A stretch of 45,422 nucleotides of DNA from Pseudomonadota bacterium (GTDB lineage Bacteria > Myxococcota > JACRCW01 > JAFGSX01): assembly GCA_043821645.1 (NCBI GenBank), contig JBDRCO010000123.1, positions 1 through 45,422 on the forward strand, given 5' to 3'. This document shows, in pieces, positions 13,417-40,499 of this stretch. Made by a program: the position numbers and the translations under genes. Numbering within the stretch: position 1 is the stretch's first letter; each line of letters opens with the position of its first letter. The notes under the pieces were generated by a model. It did no database searches, was not told the DNA's origin, and worked only from the letters and a program-made list of their open reading frames with translations.

Positions 13417-14160
13417 ATGGCACAGAACCCCACAGGCCTGGCACTCCCCAGACTGACGCCCGCAGTCAAGGTGATCCTCATCACCAACGTCGCGGTCTTC
13501 GTCCTGCTCGGCCTCCTGGTCAAGATTGCGCCCGGCTTCTACGTCATCCTGTTCGACAACCTGGCGCTGTCCCCGAGTGCCATCGTCGATTTCAAAGTCT
13601 GGACCCTGCTCACCTACGCCTTCGTGCACAGCCTCCAGGATGTGTTCCACCTCCTGTTCAACCTCCTGCTGCTGTTCTTCTTCGGGCCGGCCCTCGAGCA
13701 GCGATGGGGCACCCGGCGTTTCGTGATCTTCTACGCCATGGGGGCGCTCGGCGGGGCTGCCCTGTTCCTGGCCTTCAATGTGCTCGTCGGCAACGAGGCC
13801 AGGGTGGTCGGAGCTTCCGGCGCCGTCCTGGCAGCGCTGGTGGCCTGGGGCCTGATCTACCCCAACATCCCCGTTTACTTCTTCGGCATCCTGCCGCTCC
13901 GTGGCAAGCACCTGATCCTGATCACCATCGGCATCGAGCTGCTGATGGCGGTGTCCCAGACGCCGGTGTCGTCGGCAACGCATTTTGGCGGCATGGCGGT
14001 GGGCGCGCTGCTGGTCACCGGCTACTGGCGGCCGCGGGCACTTTTCGAAAAACTTCAGCTCGCTCGAAAAAAAGTACGCCGACCGCGGTCACCCAAGTTC
14101 ACCGTCGTCATCAACCCCGATGACGACGACCGGGCCCCGCCGGGTGGGTGGGTGCACTAG
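13417..14160 (+). CDS. Rhomboid family intramembrane serine protease
   Basis: WTLLTYAFVH, HLLFN, catalytic GASG and HFGG; GGAG RBS. Confidence 0.92.
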   Translation: MAQNPTGLALPRLTPAVKVILITNVAVFVLLGLLVKIAPGFYVILFDNLALSPSAIVDFKVWTLLTYAFVHSLQDVFHLLFNLLLLFFFGPALEQRWGTRRFVIFYAMGALGGAALFLAFNVLVGNEARVVGASGAVLAALVAWGLIYPNIPVYFFGILPLRGKHLILITIGIELLMAVSQTPVSSATHFGGMAVGALLVTGYWRPRALFEKLQLARKKVRRPRSPKFTVVINPDDDDRAPPGGWVH

Positions 14161-25129: not shown

Positions 25130-26665
25130 ATGACAGCTGAGATCGTCGTCATCGACGGCCAGAGCCTGCGCATCGAGCAGGTCGAGCAGGTGGCCCGACA
25201 GGGCGCCCGCGTCACCCTCGGGGACGATGCCAGGGAACGCATGACCCGCTCGCGTGCGCTGGTCGAGAGACTCGCCCATGGCACCAAGCCCGTGTACGGC
25301 CTCAACACGGGGTTTGGCGCGCTCGCCGAGATCCGCATCGACGAGAAGGACCTGGAGCGTCTGCAGCGCAACCTGATCCTGTCCCACGCCGTCGGGGTGG
25401 GAGAACCGCTCCCCTTTGACGCCGCGCGGGCTTCCATGGTGCTGCGCGCCAACGTGCTGGCCACGGGTTGCGCGGGCGTGCGTGTCGAGGTGGTGGAGAC
25501 CCTCATCGACCTGCTCAACGCTGATGTGGCACCGCGGATCCCGTCGCGAGGCTCCGTGGGTGCGTCAGGAGACCTGGCGCCCCTGGCCCACATCGCCCTG
25601 CTGCTCATGGGTGACGGCGAGGCCATGCTTCGAGGTCTGCGCGTGAGTGCCGCCGAGGCCCTGGCAGCAGCCGGCCGTGGGCCCCTGGTCCTCCAGGCCA
25701 AGGAAGGCCTGGCACTGGTCAACGGCACACAGGTGATGGCTGGCCTTGGCTGCCTCGTGCTCCTCGACTCCGAGCGCCTGGCAAGCCTGGCCGACGTGGC
25801 CGGCGCGTGCACCGTCGAGGGCTACATGGGCACCTCGCGGGCCTTCGACCCCCGCATCCAGGCCGTCCGTCCGCACCCGGGCCAGGCCACCGTGGCCAGG
25901 AACCTGCGGGACCTGCTGGCGGACTCGCAGATCTACGAGAGCCATCGCTTCTGTGGCAAGGTACAGGATCCCTACTCGATGCGGTGCATGCCCCAGGTCC
26001 ATGGCGCCACCCGGGATGCGCTGGCCTACGTGCGGCGCGTGCTCGAGGTGGAGATCAACAGCGCCACCGACAACCCCCTGGTGTTTGCGGACGACGACGA
26101 GATGATCAGTGGCGGCAACTTTCATGGCCAGCCGCTGGCCCTGGCCATGGACTTTCTGGGTATTGCCATGGCCGAGCTCGCCAGCATCAGTGAGCGTCGC
26201 ACCGAGCACCTCGTCAACCCCACACTCTCGGGACTGCCCGCGTTTCTCGTCGAGGACAGCGGGCTCAATAGCGGCCTCATGATCACCCAGGTCACCGCCG
26301 CGGCCCTGATCAGCGAGAACAAGGTGCTGGCGCATCCGGCCTCGGTCGACAGCATTCCCTCCTCGGCCAATCGCGAGGACCATGTCTCCATGGGCATGAC
26401 CGCCGCGCTCAAGGCCCGGCAGATCGTGGACAATGTGTGCTGGGTCCTGAGCATCGAAATCCTGGCCGCGTGCCAGGCTCTGGAATTCAGGCTGCCCCTG
26501 AGACCAGGGGTGGGACCTGGGGCGGTGTATGACCAGGTACGCACGCGTGTGCCACCACTGCACGGTGATCGCCGACTCGAGCTCGACATGCACGCGGTGC
26601 ACGAACTGATGACCAGCGGCCGGCTCCTCGACGCTGTGCGACAGTGTGTGCCCGGGCTGAGCTGA
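25130..26665 (+). CDS. hutH: Histidine ammonia-lyase
   Basis: [15 protein letters not shown], the MIO-forming [37 protein letters not shown] and EDHVSMG. Confidence 0.97.
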
Positions 26666-26698
26666 GGTCGGCACCGCAGCCGGCAGGGGGCACCAGCG

Positions 26699-26727
26699 TT
26701 GACAGCCGGGACGTCGATCCCTAACAT
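26699..26727 (+). promoter_or_regulatory. Sigma70 promoter of the lipoprotein-lgt unit
   Basis: TTGACA-N17-TAACAT. Confidence 0.7.
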
Positions 26728-26790
26728 GGTGTGGTCGGTTTCTCGTCGACGCGTGCCCGTGGTCCAGGGGTGCGCATGGGGTCATCATCG

Positions 26791-27780
26791 ATGAAGACGT
26801 TGCACGGGATCGCACTCGCATCCTTCTCGCTGGCAGTGATGTCCCTGGTCGGCTGCGACTCGGCGAGCCTCGATCCTGCGAGCGGCGAAGATCCAAGCCT
26901 GCGCGCGGCCCTGTCCCGGACGCCCGAGGAACTCGAACTGGCGGATCTGCCCGGCCGTCGCGCCGTGGCCGAACGCATGCTGCGGACCGCCCGCACCCAG
27001 GTCGAATCGCAGGAGCGCGAGCAGCTGGAAGCGGCGGCGACGGCTGGGGTCATCGGTGCTGTCGGTGTGGTTGACGGCGAGCGCGATGCGCGGGGCGTGG
27101 ATCCTATCCTGGTCGCCGCGGTGCAGGGCGGGGACGATGCGATCCAGGTCGAAGCCACCGGCACCATCGATTTCTTCACCCCGGAACATCTGACTGCCGA
27201 GGCCCTGGATCCCCGGCTGCGCATCGACGTGGGCTTCCTTCACGAGAGCAGCGAGGCACTCGGCGGTCGCAGCGAGGCACAGACCGTCGAGGCACTGAGC
27301 GGTTTCCTGGGTTCCCTGGGCCAGCAGGCCGCACCCACGGTGACGTCCTGGACGGTGATGCGGAGGCCGGGCCTGCGTGCGGCCCTCGTGCTGCTGGTCG
27401 ACGAGGGAATCCTCGAGGTCAACCCGGCCTTCCTGTACTACATCTCGGCCATTTCGCGCCCGGTGAGCGTGGCGGTGGCCGTGCCTGCGACGGCAGGTGG
27501 TCCGGACAGCAAGCCTCCTGCGGATGACTGGCAGATCTTCCTGCGCTGGCTCGAGAGTGCGGATCCCTCGTCGTGGACCAACCTGGGCACGGGTGAGTCC
27601 CAGTCCTACGATTCGGGGTATTACGAGCCCACGCCCACACCCAACCCGTTCTTGCTCTGCCCCTGCTGCTACTGTTCATCGCTCGGCCTCGGCGTCGAGG
27701 GACCGGCCAGGGGGTTTGCCGCCATCCTGGGCGCACTGCTGCCCCTGGGTGCCCTGATCCTGATCCGCCGCCGCGGCTGA
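26791..27780 (+). CDS. Lipoprotein with a C-terminal Cys/TM/basic (MYXO-CTERM-like) tail
   Basis: Leader MKTLHGIALASFSLAVMSLVGC (lipobox LVGC); ends CPCCYCSS...FAAILGALLPLGALILIRRRG. Confidence 0.75.
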   Translation: MKTLHGIALASFSLAVMSLVGCDSASLDPASGEDPSLRAALSRTPEELELADLPGRRAVAERMLRTARTQVESQEREQLEAAATAGVIGAVGVVDGERDARGVDPILVAAVQGGDDAIQVEATGTIDFFTPEHLTAEALDPRLRIDVGFLHESSEALGGRSEAQTVEALSGFLGSLGQQAAPTVTSWTVMRRPGLRAALVLLVDEGILEVNPAFLYYISAISRPVSVAVAVPATAGGPDSKPPADDWQIFLRWLESADPSSWTNLGTGESQSYDSGYYEPTPTPNPFLLCPCCYCSSLGLGVEGPARGFAAILGALLPLGALILIRRRG

Positions 27781-27802
27781 CCTCTCCCTCGACACCGCAC
27801 GC

Positions 27803-28702
27803 ATGCGCGCCCGTCTCGCACAGTGGCTGGGACTGGATCCCACGGGTGTGTCCTCCCTGCTGATCAGCCAGCCGGCAGCTCTTGCCCTGGGGTTCGTGGC
27901 CTCGATCTGGCTCCTGCTGCGCGCTGGAAAATCGATGGGCCTGCGCCAGCGCGAGGTCGCTGAGCTGTTGATCGCGGCCTATCTCGGAGCCCTTGTTGCC
28001 GGCAGATTCCTCGACATGCTGACCTGGGGCGCGGACTTCTGGAGCCAGCCCTGGCGCATCGCGGACCCCTGGTTCGGCGGCGCGTCGACCCTGGGCGGAC
28101 TGCTGGGAGCGACCGCGGGTGTGGTGTGGCTCGGCCGGCGTCGGGGCCTCGACATCGTGCGATTTCTCGATGCGGCTGCACCGGTGGGAGGGGTGACGGT
28201 CGCACTGTTCAAGAGTGGCTGCTTTCTGGCCGGATGCTGCTATGGACAGCGCAGCGATGGACTTCTGGGGCTGCGCTTTCCGGCGAGCTCGCTGGTCTAC
28301 TACCACCAGGTGGGTCTGGGGCTCATCGACAGCCACTACCATGACAGCTTGCCGGTCTTGCCCGTGCAGTTGTTCGAAGCCGGCTGGGGCCTGCTGGTCG
28401 CCCTGGGGCTCTGGGGGACGCGGCCGTGGTTGAGACAATACGCGGGGGGGAGCTTCACGCTCGGCGCCATGCTCCTGCTCGGCGGCCGTACCGGGATCGA
28501 AGCCCTGCGCGGCGGTCAGGTGGCCACGATGCTGGGGCTGACCGCCGGGCAGATCACGTGCATCTTCTTCATGCTGGTCCTGGTGCTGGTTTGGTGGGGT
28601 CCCTGGCGAGAGCAGGTCCTGACCTGGTTGCGCCCGGGCCCCGCGCCATCGCCACTCTCCCTCCCGGCAGGCGACCCGCCCACGCCAGAGCAGCCTGGCT
28701 GA
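27803..28702 (+). CDS. Divergent prolipoprotein diacylglyceryl transferase (Lgt) family protein
   Basis: GG....GG, LD..AP, GCFLAGCCYG, LRFP, PVQLFE and R..IE.LRG in Lgt order, with several conserved residues substituted. Confidence 0.85.
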   Translation: MRARLAQWLGLDPTGVSSLLISQPAALALGFVASIWLLLRAGKSMGLRQREVAELLIAAYLGALVAGRFLDMLTWGADFWSQPWRIADPWFGGASTLGGLLGATAGVVWLGRRRGLDIVRFLDAAAPVGGVTVALFKSGCFLAGCCYGQRSDGLLGLRFPASSLVYYHQVGLGLIDSHYHDSLPVLPVQLFEAGWGLLVALGLWGTRPWLRQYAGGSFTLGAMLLLGGRTGIEALRGGQVATMLGLTAGQITCIFFMLVLVLVWWGPWREQVLTWLRPGPAPSPLSLPAGDPPTPEQPG

Positions 28703-28726
28703 TCCCACCGCGATCGCCGTGGCGCA

Positions 28727-28755
28727 TTGAAAGCCCTGGTCCTGTCTGCTACACA
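28727..28755 (+). promoter_or_regulatory. Putative sigma70 promoter of alaS
   Basis: TTGAAA-N17-TACACA with a TG extension, 45 bp before the ATG. Confidence 0.55.
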
Positions 28756-28800
28756 GCGCGCGAACCCGGCGCGGTGAGCCGGATAAAAGCGAGAGCCGCC

Positions 28801-31428
<2,628 letters not shown>

Positions 31429-35391: not shown

Positions 35392-37074
35392 ATGACCACC
35401 GCGCTCCTTCTGGCCAGCCTTCTTGCACTGCCCGGTCCCGAGTTCCTTCAGGGCGTCACCGTGGACGGCTGGACACAACAAGCCCTGCCGGGCGTGGTGT
35501 TGCGAGACCAAGAAGGGCGCGCCATCGCGACCAGCGATGCCCGGGGACGTTTCTCGGGCCAGATGCTGCGGGGCATGCCGGGCTTGTGGGCAGAAGAACC
35601 GCACGCGCGGTACGAGCGAACGGCGATCCTGTTGCCCAGAGATGCGGCCGGAAACCTGCTCATGACTCCTCTGCGCATCGCCCTGATCCCTTTCGTGCCG
35701 GAGGGCCCGCCTGCGCCGGGAGCCACGGGCGTCCCCGCCGAGCGCCACGGGGATGCAGACCTCGCTGGACCCGAGCCCCTGACCTCCCCCCTGTGGTCCT
35801 ACACCTTGCCGGCACAGATGCCGTCGACGATTCGCGTGCTGCGCTGCCCCGGCACCACCTGCTGCGATGCTCCAGGGGATGGCGTCCAGACCATGAGCTT
35901 CGAGGACTACGTCAAGGGTGTCGTCAACGCAGAGGTTGGCATCTTCCGCAGCATGTCCACCCTCGACGGTCAGGCTCTCGGCGAGGCCGCGCGGCAGACG
36001 GGTTCCGCCGCCGTGTTCCAGACGCTGGCTGTCGGCTCTCGAAGCTATGCCCTCAACTGGTACCTGCGCCGGCAGAGCAACAACCCGGGCTATGACATCC
36101 GCGACGGCACCTGCGAGCAGGTCTATGGCGACGAACGTCACGCGTGGATCAACAGCGCCGTCGATGCCACGGCTGGAGAGATCCTGGCCGTCTCCGGGGG
36201 CGTGTCCATCGACAGCTTCGAGTATGCCTCGAGCTGCAAGCGGCTCGGCAGCTTGCCCTATGGAGTGTCGGCGAGCAGTCCAAGCTGTGGCGACGTGGTG
36301 CCGGACCTCACCGGCGTGGTGGCCTGCGTGGGGAGCTGGTGTGGCCATGACACGCCAGACATGGGCCACCAGACCCATCCCTGCGATGCCTCGCGCTGCC
36401 GCTGCCTGGTCCGCGGGATCTGCCAGTGGGGGGCGGCCGAACGCTCGTTTGCGGGACAGGACTACCTGACCATCCTGACCCACTATCAACCCAACCTCGT
36501 GTGCTTGCACCTGGGCAGTGGCCAGTGCGGTGGAGGCAGCACCGTCACCACGGGGAAGCTCGTGGGCTACGTGCGTGAAGGGGACATCTACAACACCGCG
36601 ACACCCATCACCAACGCCAGCGTGGTGCTCAGCCTCGGTGCCAGTACCCAGAGCAGCAGCGACGGCTACTACGAGTTCCTGGCCCTGCAGCCCAGCCAGA
36701 CCGTCACCGTCGAGGCCAGTGCTCCGGGCTACACGACGACCATCGAGTCGAAGTTCCTGGACCCCGCCTTCACCACCTGGTGGAAGTCCCTGGCCCTGAC
36801 CCCTGTGGCCGATGCCGGGACCGCGGCGGATGCAAGGCCACGGGACACGTCCTCCGTCGACACCGCCCGTGATGCCACGGTGGAGGCCGGGGCGCTGGAC
36901 CACTGGGTGCTCCGCGATGCCGGGGAAGCTGGGCCGCTGGATTCCGCGACGAAGCCGCCAGACCCCCGTGTTGGCAGCGGCGGTTGCGACTGCACATCGT
37001 TGCTGCAAGACACCCGACCTGCCTGGTGGGCGGCCCTTGCTCTGCTGCTCGCGCTGCGTCGATCTCGGGGATGA
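35392..37074 (+). CDS. SpoIID/LytB-domain protein with carboxypeptidase-regulatory-like domains and a MYXO-CTERM tail
   Basis: FEDYVKGVVNAE, LAVGSRSY, CEQVY, AVDATAG, GICQWGA and ILTHY; tail GGCDC...WWAALALLLALRRSRG. Confidence 0.85.
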   Translation: MTTALLLASLLALPGPEFLQGVTVDGWTQQALPGVVLRDQEGRAIATSDARGRFSGQMLRGMPGLWAEEPHARYERTAILLPRDAAGNLLMTPLRIALIPFVPEGPPAPGATGVPAERHGDADLAGPEPLTSPLWSYTLPAQMPSTIRVLRCPGTTCCDAPGDGVQTMSFEDYVKGVVNAEVGIFRSMSTLDGQALGEAARQTGSAAVFQTLAVGSRSYALNWYLRRQSNNPGYDIRDGTCEQVYGDERHAWINSAVDATAGEILAVSGGVSIDSFEYASSCKRLGSLPYGVSASSPSCGDVVPDLTGVVACVGSWCGHDTPDMGHQTHPCDASRCRCLVRGICQWGAAERSFAGQDYLTILTHYQPNLVCLHLGSGQCGGGSTVTTGKLVGYVREGDIYNTATPITNASVVLSLGASTQSSSDGYYEFLALQPSQTVTVEASAPGYTTTIESKFLDPAFTTWWKSLALTPVADAGTAADARPRDTSSVDTARDATVEAGALDHWVLRDAGEAGPLDSATKPPDPRVGSGGCDCTSLLQDTRPAWWAALALLLALRRSRG

Positions 37075-38537: not shown

Positions 38538-40313
38538 TCAGCGCAACTCGTGCAGGCTGTGGGCAACCCGGGCCGTCTGGTTGGGCTCGATCTTCACGGT
38601 CACTCGCATCTCACGCTTGAGCTCGGGATTGAACAGGCGCAGGGTCCGACGACCGGCGGGCAGCTCGAACTCCGTCGGGGTGATGCCCATCTTGCGCTGT
38701 CCAACCCAGACCTCGGCCCAGCCATCGGACAGGTAAACCAGGACCTTGCCCTTGCCCCGGGGAGCTCTGGGGGCGACTGTGGGCGAAGGAACCACCCCCT
38801 GGCCAGCATCGGAGACCGCCGCGTCGGCCTCCCGCACCTCCACGCCCGCGTCCAGGACCGGTGGTGTTGCAGAAGCATCCCGGCGTTGCCCAGGGATGAG
38901 GTTACTGCCGGGGTCGACGGCTCCCGATCCCGTCGGCGGATCGACGGGCTGCTCGAACCCCGACCCGGCGCTGCCCGCACTCGCCACCGGGCCCTCGGCT
39001 GTCTGGCTCGCTCTCGGCACAAGCCCGTACACCAGCGCCGTCGCCACGATCACCAGCGAGGCAGAGAGCGCGACCACCCAGCGGCGTTGCAGGCCCACCG
39101 TCGCCTCGTGCTGGGCGCGGGCCAGAGATCGAGCGGCCGCGGTCTCGATGGACGGGCTGGCCACAGGCGTCAGTGCGCGCTCGAACAGCGCTTCGTCCTG
39201 TGGCACCACGGTCGAGGTCATGGTCGTCAGGGGAACGTCCGCTGGCGCATCGATCCTCGACGAGGTGATCTGGCCTGCTGCGACCGGGGACTCGGCCCAG
39301 ACGCTGTCGTGCTCCGCATCGGGTGCGTCCTCGAAGGGTGGAAGATCCGCAACGGCCGGCAGGACCTCGGTACGAGGTCTGTCTCCGCGTCCGTCGCCAA
39401 ACAGCCGCAGTACCACGGGGCCCGGATCCAGGTCCTCGGGTCCCGGCTGTCTCTCGAAGATCCAGCGGCGCAGCGCAGCCTCCATCTCGGCCATGCTGCA
39501 GTAGCGCTGATCCCTGTCGACCCGCGTCGACCGCACCACGATCTCGGCGAGGCTGGCCGGAACCTCCGGTACCAGTTCACGCACATCGGGCACCGCACCC
39601 CGCAACGCGCTCCGCAGGATCGTCGCTTGCGATTCCCCCTCGTAGGCTCGGCGTCCGCTGAGCATCTCGAACAGCACGAGACCGGTGGCAAACTGATCGC
39701 TGCGATGGTCCAGTTCCGCCTCGCCGGCCGCCTGCTCCGGCGACATGTATGCCAGCTTGCCCTTGACGGTCCCGGTGGCGGTATGAACCATCCGGCTCGT
39801 CGCCTTGGCGATGCCGAAATCGCTGATCTTGACCTCGCCGGCAAAGGACAGCAGCACGTTGTGTGGCGACACGTCGCGGTGCACGATGTTCATGGGCATG
39901 CCGCGTTCGTGCCGCGTGTGTGCATGCCCCAGCCCACGGCACATCTCGGCAGCAATGAGCGCAGCACGCGCCGGACCAAGCGTCGCCCCCTGCCCCCGCA
40001 GGGCGTGCAGCACAGACCTCAGGTCCTTGCCCTCGACCAGCTCCATGGCAATGTAGTAGCGGTCGTCGACGACGTTGAAGTCCAGGATCTGCACGATGTT
40101 CGCGTGCCGGAGCCGTGCCGCCACGCGGGCCTCATCGATGAACATCGCCACGAAGTCCTGGTCTTCCGAGCAGTGCGGGAGGATGCGCTTGATGCATACC
40201 TCCATCTCGAAGCCACCCGGCCCCGTCGTCCGCGCCCTGAAGATCTCGGCCATGCCGCCAAGCCCGATGCGCTCGCACAGCGTGTAGCGACCAAATGCGT
40301 GCTCGCTGGTCAT
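38538..40313 (-). CDS. Membrane Ser/Thr protein kinase with a C-terminal PEGA-like domain
   Basis: IGLGGMAEI, IKR, HRDVSPHN, DFG, YMSPEQ and DHRSD; one TM; GITP...LPAGRRTL. Confidence 0.95.
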   Translation of the reverse strand: MTSEHAFGRYTLCERIGLGGMAEIFRARTTGPGGFEMEVCIKRILPHCSEDQDFVAMFIDEARVAARLRHANIVQILDFNVVDDRYYIAMELVEGKDLRSVLHALRGQGATLGPARAALIAAEMCRGLGHAHTRHERGMPMNIVHRDVSPHNVLLSFAGEVKISDFGIAKATSRMVHTATGTVKGKLAYMSPEQAAGEAELDHRSDQFATGLVLFEMLSGRRAYEGESQATILRSALRGAVPDVRELVPEVPASLAEIVVRSTRVDRDQRYCSMAEMEAALRRWIFERQPGPEDLDPGPVVLRLFGDGRGDRPRTEVLPAVADLPPFEDAPDAEHDSVWAESPVAAGQITSSRIDAPADVPLTTMTSTVVPQDEALFERALTPVASPSIETAAARSLARAQHEATVGLQRRWVVALSASLVIVATALVYGLVPRASQTAEGPVASAGSAGSGFEQPVDPPTGSGAVDPGSNLIPGQRRDASATPPVLDAGVEVREADAAVSDAGQGVVPSPTVAPRAPRGKGKVLVYLSDGWAEVWVGQRKMGITPTEFELPAGRRTLRLFNPELKREMRVTVKIEPNQTARVAHSLHELR

Positions 40314-40499
40314 CCCGCCCCAATCACCGGGGGACACGCGTCCCCGCTCCGGGTCTGCACAGGCGTTTCTTTTCCTTCGATCGTCAAGCCTAGGACCCTG
40401 CGGTTCTTCCCGCAACCGCGGTCACCGGTGATATCACCTACTCTCGTCGACGGTGCGGGCTCCAGGTAGAATGCAACTCCGATTCATAAGGAGGACCTC

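Follow-up and report, generated by a model that had tools for sequence, protein, structure and literature searches.

A lipoprotein with a C-terminal cysteine tail encoded beside a remodelled Lgt paralogue in a myxobacterium-like genome: a possible module for lipidation of the tail

What does a remodelled paralogue of Lgt do directly downstream of a lipoprotein gene whose product ends in a second cluster of cysteines, a transmembrane (TM) helix and a run of arginines? The question is raised by two genes on contig JBDRCO010000123.1 of a Pseudomonadota bacterium (Myxococcota; JACRCW01; JAFGSX01 in GTDB; assembly GCA_043821645.1). The whole contig of 45,422 nucleotides, C123 of its genome (G000), was analysed and is called the window here; the genome it comes from is myxobacterium-like, with 7.07 Mb and 67% G+C in 140 contigs. 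Gene 1 (26791..27780, +; P0027) encodes an orphan lipoprotein of 329 amino acids (aa) with the tail described above, and gene 2 (27803..28702, +; P0001) encodes a divergent Lgt-family protein of 299 aa, named Lgt3 here; 22 bp lie between the stop of the former and the start of the latter. According to the experimental paper on myxosortase (PMC11980579), it has yet to be established which enzyme attaches lipid to the invariant cysteine in MYXO-CTERM tails and in similar sorting tails at the C-terminus. The same paper foresees lipidation of the cysteine, before cleavage, by an unidentified 'Lgt-like acyl-transferase', for which Lgt itself is the leading candidate. Among the matches listed for literature on MYXO-CTERM, myxosortase and lgt paralogues, none links an Lgt paralogue to a C-terminal cysteine tail. 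On the widest interpretation considered below, in which the clade of gene 2 and its sister group lipidate C-terminal cysteines, no earlier enzyme-substrate pair with genetic linkage would exist for the lipidation step postulated by the myxosortase model. Because an Lgt-family gene is tied here to a single cysteine-tailed protein, a pair of one enzyme and one substrate would make the lipidation question directly testable. Most likely, the two genes are a functional module built around the tail, and a functional link of one kind or another between them is quite probable. Our favoured explanation, that gene 2 encodes a dedicated Lgt-family enzyme which transfers lipid to the clustered tail cysteines of gene 1, is put forward tentatively, at somewhat less than even confidence.

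The product of gene 1 is unusual at both ends. The open reading frame (ORF) as listed covers 26731-27780, while all homologues start at the position corresponding to the ATG at 26791 (MK...), which gives the 329 residues. As in bacterial lipoproteins, a basic start is followed by a hydrophobic stretch (residues 3-22) and a lipobox, LVGC with Cys22, so that the lipoprotein signal peptide occupies 26791..26856 (+; Cys22 codon at 26854-26856); the lipobox pattern is given as [LVI][ASTVI][GAS]C (PMC12462473). Cys22 is invariant in 12/12 members of the gene 1 family, remote ones included. At the other end is the cluster C290-P-C292-C293-Y-C295 (27658..27675, +), all four cysteines of which are invariant in 7/7 sequences. 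C295 is followed by SSLGLGVEGPARG, a linker of 12 residues of SSxGLG type, then by a hydrophobic helix at about residues 305-325 and the RRRG end (27676..27777, +). If six full-length sequences and one partial sequence with 42-69% identity are compared, the invariant set consists of Cys22, C290, C292, C293, C295, S296, G299-L300-G301, L317-P318 and R326-R328, and the lipobox cysteine and the four tail cysteines are together invariant in 6/6 full-length relatives. Thus, both ends that the original prediction had read from the DNA are present, with their cysteines conserved. A tail of the type CxCCxC-TM-RR is found in the source genome only in gene 1 (11 regular-expression matches, 10 of which are out-of-frame junk by eye). 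Pfam and NCBIfam hold no match for gene 1 as a whole or for its tail alone. A profile search of 1.84 billion protein representatives gave 5 matches below 1e-30 and 11 below 1e-3, and a protein atlas search gave no usable match. The AlphaFold model of gene 1, built from 6 sequences, is poor (mean predicted local distance difference test score, pLDDT, 54.6).

Then, what is gene 2? It scores 108.9 bits against Pfam LGT (PF01790; cut-off 24.9) over positions 18-239 of the 240 of the model, by which it is a member of the family, and its sequence directly matches 5azb_A with an E value of 6e-07. It is not the sole lgt of its genome, a count on which the original prediction had been made to depend: three PF01790 genes are present, on contigs C136 (196 bits) and C49 (138.6 bits) and in the window, where the score is the weakest. 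The C136 copy is canonical, with Y-G, F-Y-GG, G-R-L-G-C, H-P-x-Q-L-Y-E and Y...R...E..R. Gene 2 and its nearest relatives make up what we call the Lgt3 clade, ten proteins (P0001-P0010) with 45-100% identity, beyond which scores drop from 208 to 84 bits. A profile of this clade reaches 476 bits in the source genome and in G001, a genome of a sister genus, only; the next of 301 phylum genomes scores 152.7, and two class-level relatives give nothing. In a quick tree of 37 rows (L016, L096, L097, L101, L102 and L103 were left out, their ORFs not being cleanly extractable), the Lgt3 clade sits on a long stem branch (1.03) and, with a sister group, stands apart from the housekeeping enzymes. It is to be noted that the C49 copy (G000:C49:43057-43833, -; L002:1432-2349) is a second divergent Lgt, with W-H for Y-G and VWYPG for F(H/Y)GG; its head domain is shortened and its branch very long (1.85), and the gene downstream of it looks by eye like one for a PEGA-domain membrane protein. 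The same genome has tandem lspA genes (G000:C118:155166-156337, -; 117.8 and 114.8 bits).

Is the neighbourhood of the two genes kept elsewhere? The original prediction had asked whether the clade of gene 2 consistently adjoins genes for Cys-TM-basic tails, and it does so in all loci that can be read as DNA (3/3), namely the window, G001 and the metagenome contig L006. In the latter two, gene 1 is again followed by the Lgt paralogue and then by alaS, with gaps of 27 and 28 bp; gene 1 of L006 is truncated by the contig end, its tail part being present. Three further pairs, P0002/P0029, P0007/P0030 and P0005/P0031, are inferred solely from contigs of the same size (2333, 3592 and 3664, respectively). 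No counter-example was seen, and the contigs of P0003, P0006, P0009 and P0010 stand outside this count. Gene 1 is present in 2/61 relatives, its profile finds a single locus over the genome-collection contigs, that of G001, and a third homologue search for further pairing contexts (alignment A9) yielded 3 proteins. Of the more distant metagenome Lgt loci, the best 20 of 80 contain a single one with a cysteine-tailed neighbour, and this is L006, which truly belongs to the clade.

A wider view of the gene 1 family brings in another pair. The weak matches P0035, P0036, P0038, P0039 and P0040 have the lipobox cysteine, an N-terminal LRxAL..SPE and a central ...NPxLLY... in common, and all of them except P0040 also end with a cysteine-rich stretch, a TM helix and an arginine cluster. 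With the profile widened in this way, 401 phylum genomes give matches in the source genome, in G001, in 155/172 genomes of one family, f11, and in G008, a genome of family f7 that belongs to a different class from the source genome (its order and class hold 2 genomes each). The G008 protein, 389 aa long, has a lipobox, a long cysteine-rich region, a TM helix and RRKRPK, and it is encoded directly 5' of an Lgt paralogue (PF01790, 102.4 bits). P0042, 51% identical to it, retains the lipobox, the cysteine-rich region and the tail. The whole cluster (L111; G008:C9:122207-125947) reads LspA (PF01252, 144.7 bits), a 184-aa membrane ORF, the 389-aa protein and the Lgt paralogue; alaS, which lies 3' of the pair in 3/3 close loci, is not nearby. 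The 389-aa protein scores 48.3 bits against the wide gene 1 profile, and against the narrow subfamily profile hhalign gives a probability of 51.6% over 81 columns. Over 188 residues, the G008 Lgt paralogue shares 35% identity with gene 2; it retains Y26, R143 and Y235 (numbering of Escherichia coli Lgt). It groups with P0012 (SH-aLRT value 99), and their group is the sister of the Lgt3 clade (support 90). No close orthologue of it, at E values up to 1e-40, is found in 400 other phylum genomes. With canonical catalytic residues kept, the G008-type pair may be a better first system for experiments than the pair in the window. The gene next to the cluster looks by eye like one for an NAD-dependent epimerase.

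Which end of gene 1 does the Lgt neighbour go with, the lipobox or the tail? The relatives in f11 are lipoproteins of about 194 aa that stop just past an NPxFLY motif and have no tail. When 29 loci were scanned with flanks of about 1.5 kb, the gene 1 relative was recovered in 29/29 and an Lgt gene only in the two tailed ones, G001 and G008; within 1.5 kb of the tail-less f11 relatives (L116:1306-1887 and 26 others, L108-L110 and L112-L135), Lgt was found in 0/27 loci, or in 0/26 without L113, which is from an unpublished genome. Since all 27 tail-less lipobox loci are without it, the Lgt neighbour seems to follow the tail and not the lipobox. This bears on a simple alternative, that gene 2 serves gene 1 as an Lgt of its own by acting on the N-terminal lipobox, and that the tail is handled by other machinery or goes unprocessed. 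Lgt enzymes do act on lipobox cysteines, that of gene 1 is invariant throughout its family as mentioned above, and extra lgt copies are encoded with particular lipoproteins on plasmids of the Bacillus cereus group (PMC13251419). However, the tail-less relatives have the same lipobox and no adjacent Lgt, the lipobox of gene 1 is an ordinary one in a genome that already has a canonical Lgt, and HGGL, for which binding of the lipobox peptide has been proposed (PMC4728403), is the motif that is altered in gene 2. We regard this alternative as very improbable. The tail-less relatives sit among housekeeping genes, such as those for SpoU methylase and SAICAR synthetase, which give no functional hint; neither Pfam nor NCBIfam has a family for these or for the remote relatives of gene 1. 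The f11 lipoproteins, whose homology to gene 1 is with its N-domain, constitute an uncharacterised family.

Can the tail be accommodated by Lgt3? A complex was modelled from Lgt3 (alignment of 10) and residues 262-329 of gene 1 (alignment of 6). Its score is 0.64 (runs 0.52, 0.64 and 0.72), against 0.00 for the best of 3 controls; the mark of 0.64 is reached by 116/157 solved complexes and by 2/215 mismatched pairs, counts which hold only roughly here because own alignments were used. The runs share at least 61% of contacts, and the pLDDT of the partner is at least 50. On the side of Lgt3, the modelled interface consists of TM1 (23-39), TM2 (48-64) and residues 89-94 and 140-146. In the model, the arginine end of the tail is found next to the cytoplasmic loop between TM1 and TM2, and C292 and C295 make contacts on the periplasmic side; confidence is highest for pairs between helices, not for those of the cysteines. 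Substrates of Lgt are proposed to enter by the front cleft between TM1 and TM2 (PMC13251419). As Lgt has, according to the same paper, not been solved together with a protein substrate, it is unlikely that the model passed by memory of a solved complex. As a prediction, the model thus supports that the Lgt paralogue binds the tail.

If the tail is bound, is the pocket that receives it still that of an enzyme? E. coli lgt from NC_000913 was aligned with the three copies of the source genome and their relatives. All the motif changes originally claimed for gene 2 are there: SQP in place of YG, STLGG in place of F(H/Y)GG, FKSGC in place of GRxGC and LPVQLFE in place of HPxQLYE, but the last of them, H to L or F in HPxQ, occurs only in 4/10 clade members (P0001-3 and P0005), while the other 6 keep H. 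Compared with E. coli Lgt (PDB 5AZB/5AZC), a protein of the same Pfam family, the clade has Q23, L97, K137 and L225 at Y26, H103, R143 and Y235 in 10/10 members. P24 of gene 2 sits at G27, and Q23, P24, L97 and K137 are invariant or nearly so in the ten. The equivalent of Y30 is L in gene 2, and its TM6-TM7 loop is shorter. Gene 2 thus lacks the residues expected of an Lgt equivalog at Y26, G27, H103 and R143; at position 103, W and Y occur as natural variants (PMC13251419). Other parts of the cavity are kept, as G148, E192, R229, E233 and R236 correspond to G154, E202, R239, E243 and R246 of E. coli Lgt and are invariant. In E. coli Lgt, the changes R143A/E/K, Y26A/F/Q and G27L/Q/W are inactivating, and so is each of the substitutions tested at H103 (A, N, Q, R and Y; PMC4728403). 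Because residues are replaced just where substitutions abolish the function in E. coli, the Lgt3 clade is not an ordinary Lgt; because all 11 mapped cavity positions are invariant in 10/10 members, compared with 68/299 positions overall, the altered cavity is under constraint. Judged by these alignments, the clade departs from ordinary Lgt, yet its cavity is not decaying.

Several points weigh against lipid transfer by gene 2, and the first ones come from gene 2 itself. Against the equivalog model TIGR00544 it has 63.6 bits for a cut-off of 118.9, and against NF000778 67.6 bits for a cut-off of 334. The K, Q, P and L of the clade fall at positions where substitutions inactivate the E. coli enzyme, and since R143K and Y26Q are themselves among these, the main rival is a non-catalytic escort: the paralogue would have lost diacylglyceryl transfer and kept the Lgt fold as a membrane receptor for the gene 1 tail. 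The role of such an escort might be to keep gene 1 at the inner membrane, to act as its chaperone, or to protect it from the general Lgt/myxosortase pathway. In the cavity, Y26, Y30 and Y235, which bear hydroxyl groups, have become Q, L and L, and the length of the stem branch of the clade is also in keeping with an escort. Y26, R143 and Y235 are still present in the sister group, the G008 paralogue among it, so that their loss is specific to the Lgt3 clade. The binding model fits an escort as well as an enzyme. On the other hand, the invariance in 10/10 members of the equivalents of R239, E243, R246, E202 and G154, together with that of the whole signature-motif region, exceeds what a groove for a helix would need, and a lysine at position 143 could still bind a phosphate or an ester oxygen. 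The escort seems to us unlikely, if the most serious of the alternatives.

The other points concern the pair. In the complex modelling, the control partners may not have been membrane helices, and docking of a hydrophobic helix may be unspecific. No CPBP protease adjoins the gene pair. The 27 tail-less loci are kin from a single family, not independent cases, and the homology between the G008 protein and gene 1, as far as the profiles tell, is remote. The close pair is limited to one family-level lineage, and because alaS is syntenic there as well, the gene order could be inherited and not selected. Is there, then, any functional link at all? Gene 2 might be a redundant, drifting Lgt paralogue that lies beside gene 1 by inherited synteny, in a lineage with poor sampling. 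In the phylum, paralogues of Lgt are frequent (0-7 PF01790 matches in a genome, with at least one in 60/61 genomes), alaS, too, is syntenic in the three close loci, and sampling is thin. Against such drift stand the recurrence of the pairing in another class and in another context, with LspA upstream and no alaS, the short intergenic gap in all loci, the 68 positions invariant in the Lgt3 clade and a complex model that passes its controls. An absence of any link is therefore considered improbable.

How would the favoured lipid transfer to the tail proceed? Gene 1 would be exported, and Cys22 lipidated by the ordinary lipoprotein pathway. The C-terminal helix would hold the protein in the inner membrane with RRRG on the cytoplasmic side, by which CPCCxC comes to lie on the membrane's periplasmic face. 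The Lgt paralogue would take the tail helix into its TM1/TM2 'front cleft' and, supposing that it is catalytically active, transfer a lipid, of whichever kind, to one or more of the clustered cysteines, so that the gene 1 protein becomes lipid-anchored at both ends; the TM-RRRG stub may later be removed by the myxosortase of the genome, if cleavage occurs. The remodelled cavity, with Q, L, K and L at Y26, H/Y103, R143 and Y235, would reflect a changed acceptor, an inverted helix without a lipobox, and possibly also a changed lipid donor. Lipid transfer is favoured because it also fits the G008-type pair, in which catalytic residues are intact, and the published prediction of an Lgt-like enzyme. 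It may even be that the missing lipid transferases for C-terminal cysteines comprise the Lgt3 clade and also its sister group (P0011-13, the G008 paralogue), which would accept an inverted TM helix with the cysteine N-terminal of it, and that gene 1 is doubly anchored in this way, but this extended form is rather doubtful. The original prediction had offered a specialised transferase for the C-terminal cysteines of its neighbour, or a non-catalytic escort: a link centred on the tail is supported by the pairing, by the 27/27 loci and by the complex model, while the choice between the two has gained no support. In either case, the Lgt3 clade would be instructive, as it would show how far an Lgt cavity can be remodelled or by which route an enzyme becomes an escort.

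How does the tail relate to MYXO-CTERM, with which the original prediction had compared it? The layout is the same, with an invariant cysteine, a TM helix and a C-terminal arginine cluster, as in the MYXO-CTERM/MrtX system (TraA in Myxococcus xanthus), where a tripartite tail of cysteine motif, TM helix and arginine cluster is found and where cleavage by the myxosortase and T2SS-dependent display at the surface are expected of a member; this three-part likeness stands, while membership in the MYXO-CTERM family does not. The tail gives no match to TIGR03901 (20 bits or more being expected of a member) at E values up to 10, and gene 1 is not among the 92 TIGR03901 matches of its own genome, in which at least 44 tails exceed the cut-off (150 of the 262 candidates were scored). 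On a hidden Markov model (HMM) of 43 tails from the same genome it has 8.0 bits, compared with 28.7-59.4 for the tails themselves, and the gene 1 family ranges from -9.9 to 10.6 bits. The gene 1 tail was thus rejected as a MYXO-CTERM member. It differs from MYXO-CTERM by having four invariant cysteines, a longer linker with GLG and an extra lipobox at the N-terminus, and its neighbour is an Lgt paralogue, not a protease. Two parts of a myxosortase core (NF040914) are found elsewhere in the genome, at G000:C26:59301-59546 (-; model 27-108, 72.1 bits) and G000:C102:12-212 (-; model 2-68, 66.7 bits); located at contig ends, they are probably one gene broken by assembly. The genome has six Rce1-like genes, none of them near the window. 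Another protein of C123, 605 aa long, ends with GCDC...RRSRG and is of MYXO-CTERM type.

MrtJ and JDVT-CTERM provide a precedent for one enzyme with one target (PMC11980579; bioRxiv 10.1101/2023.06.07.544157), in which, like here, a membrane enzyme is encoded beside its single cysteine-tailed target; MrtJ is a CPBP-type intramembrane protease, whereas gene 2 belongs to the Lgt family, and the lineage differs as well. Second lgt copies are described in Streptomyces coelicolor, Mycobacterium smegmatis and plasmids of the B. cereus group, some of them being encoded with particular lipoproteins; as described in PMC13251419 they act on N-terminal lipoboxes, and none of them is tied there to a C-terminal Cys-TM-Arg tail. 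Unlike the E. coli gene aligned above, gene 2 is a third copy beside a canonical one, and is paired with a single cysteine-tailed protein.

Are the two genes a transcription unit of their own? A sigma-70-like promoter site, TTGACA-N17-TAACAT (26699..26727, +; 10/12 matches), lies 63 nt upstream of the ATG of gene 1 and is the sole match of a promoter scan over 26300-29100, where shuffles expect 0.1; the near-consensus promoter noticed originally before the two closely spaced genes is therefore confirmed along with their spacing. The promoter shows no clear conservation in G001, and no terminator-like site was found in the same 26300-29100 scan. A gene upstream of the pair encodes an aromatic amino-acid lyase (PF00221, 677.9 bits). 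Downstream, outside the module, is alaS (28801..31428, +; PF01411, 676.9 bits), for which a separate promoter had been claimed. The promoter scan made no call in its leader, where an element TTGAAA-N17-TACACA with TGC before the -10 (28727..28755, +) would fit one; TGCTACACA of this leader is identical across the window, G001 and L006. Judged by this conservation, the element at 28727-28755 is likely to be the promoter of alaS and would then delimit the two-gene unit. An Rfam search of 26400-29000 gave no match, and one metatranscriptome searched for the locus gave 0 contigs. A near-identical strain is represented by low-depth DNA contigs over 26650-28850 in three other metagenomes (X2-X4; records: groundwater, biofilm, aquatic). 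One of these contigs spans 27642-27981 and bridges the junction of gene 1 and gene 2, which is not independent evidence, and the sole indel seen in them removes 1 nt at 28783, within the leader of alaS. Elsewhere in the window are genes for a rhomboid protease (13417-14160, +), a SpoIID-domain protein (35392-37074, +) and a Ser/Thr protein kinase (38538-40415, -).

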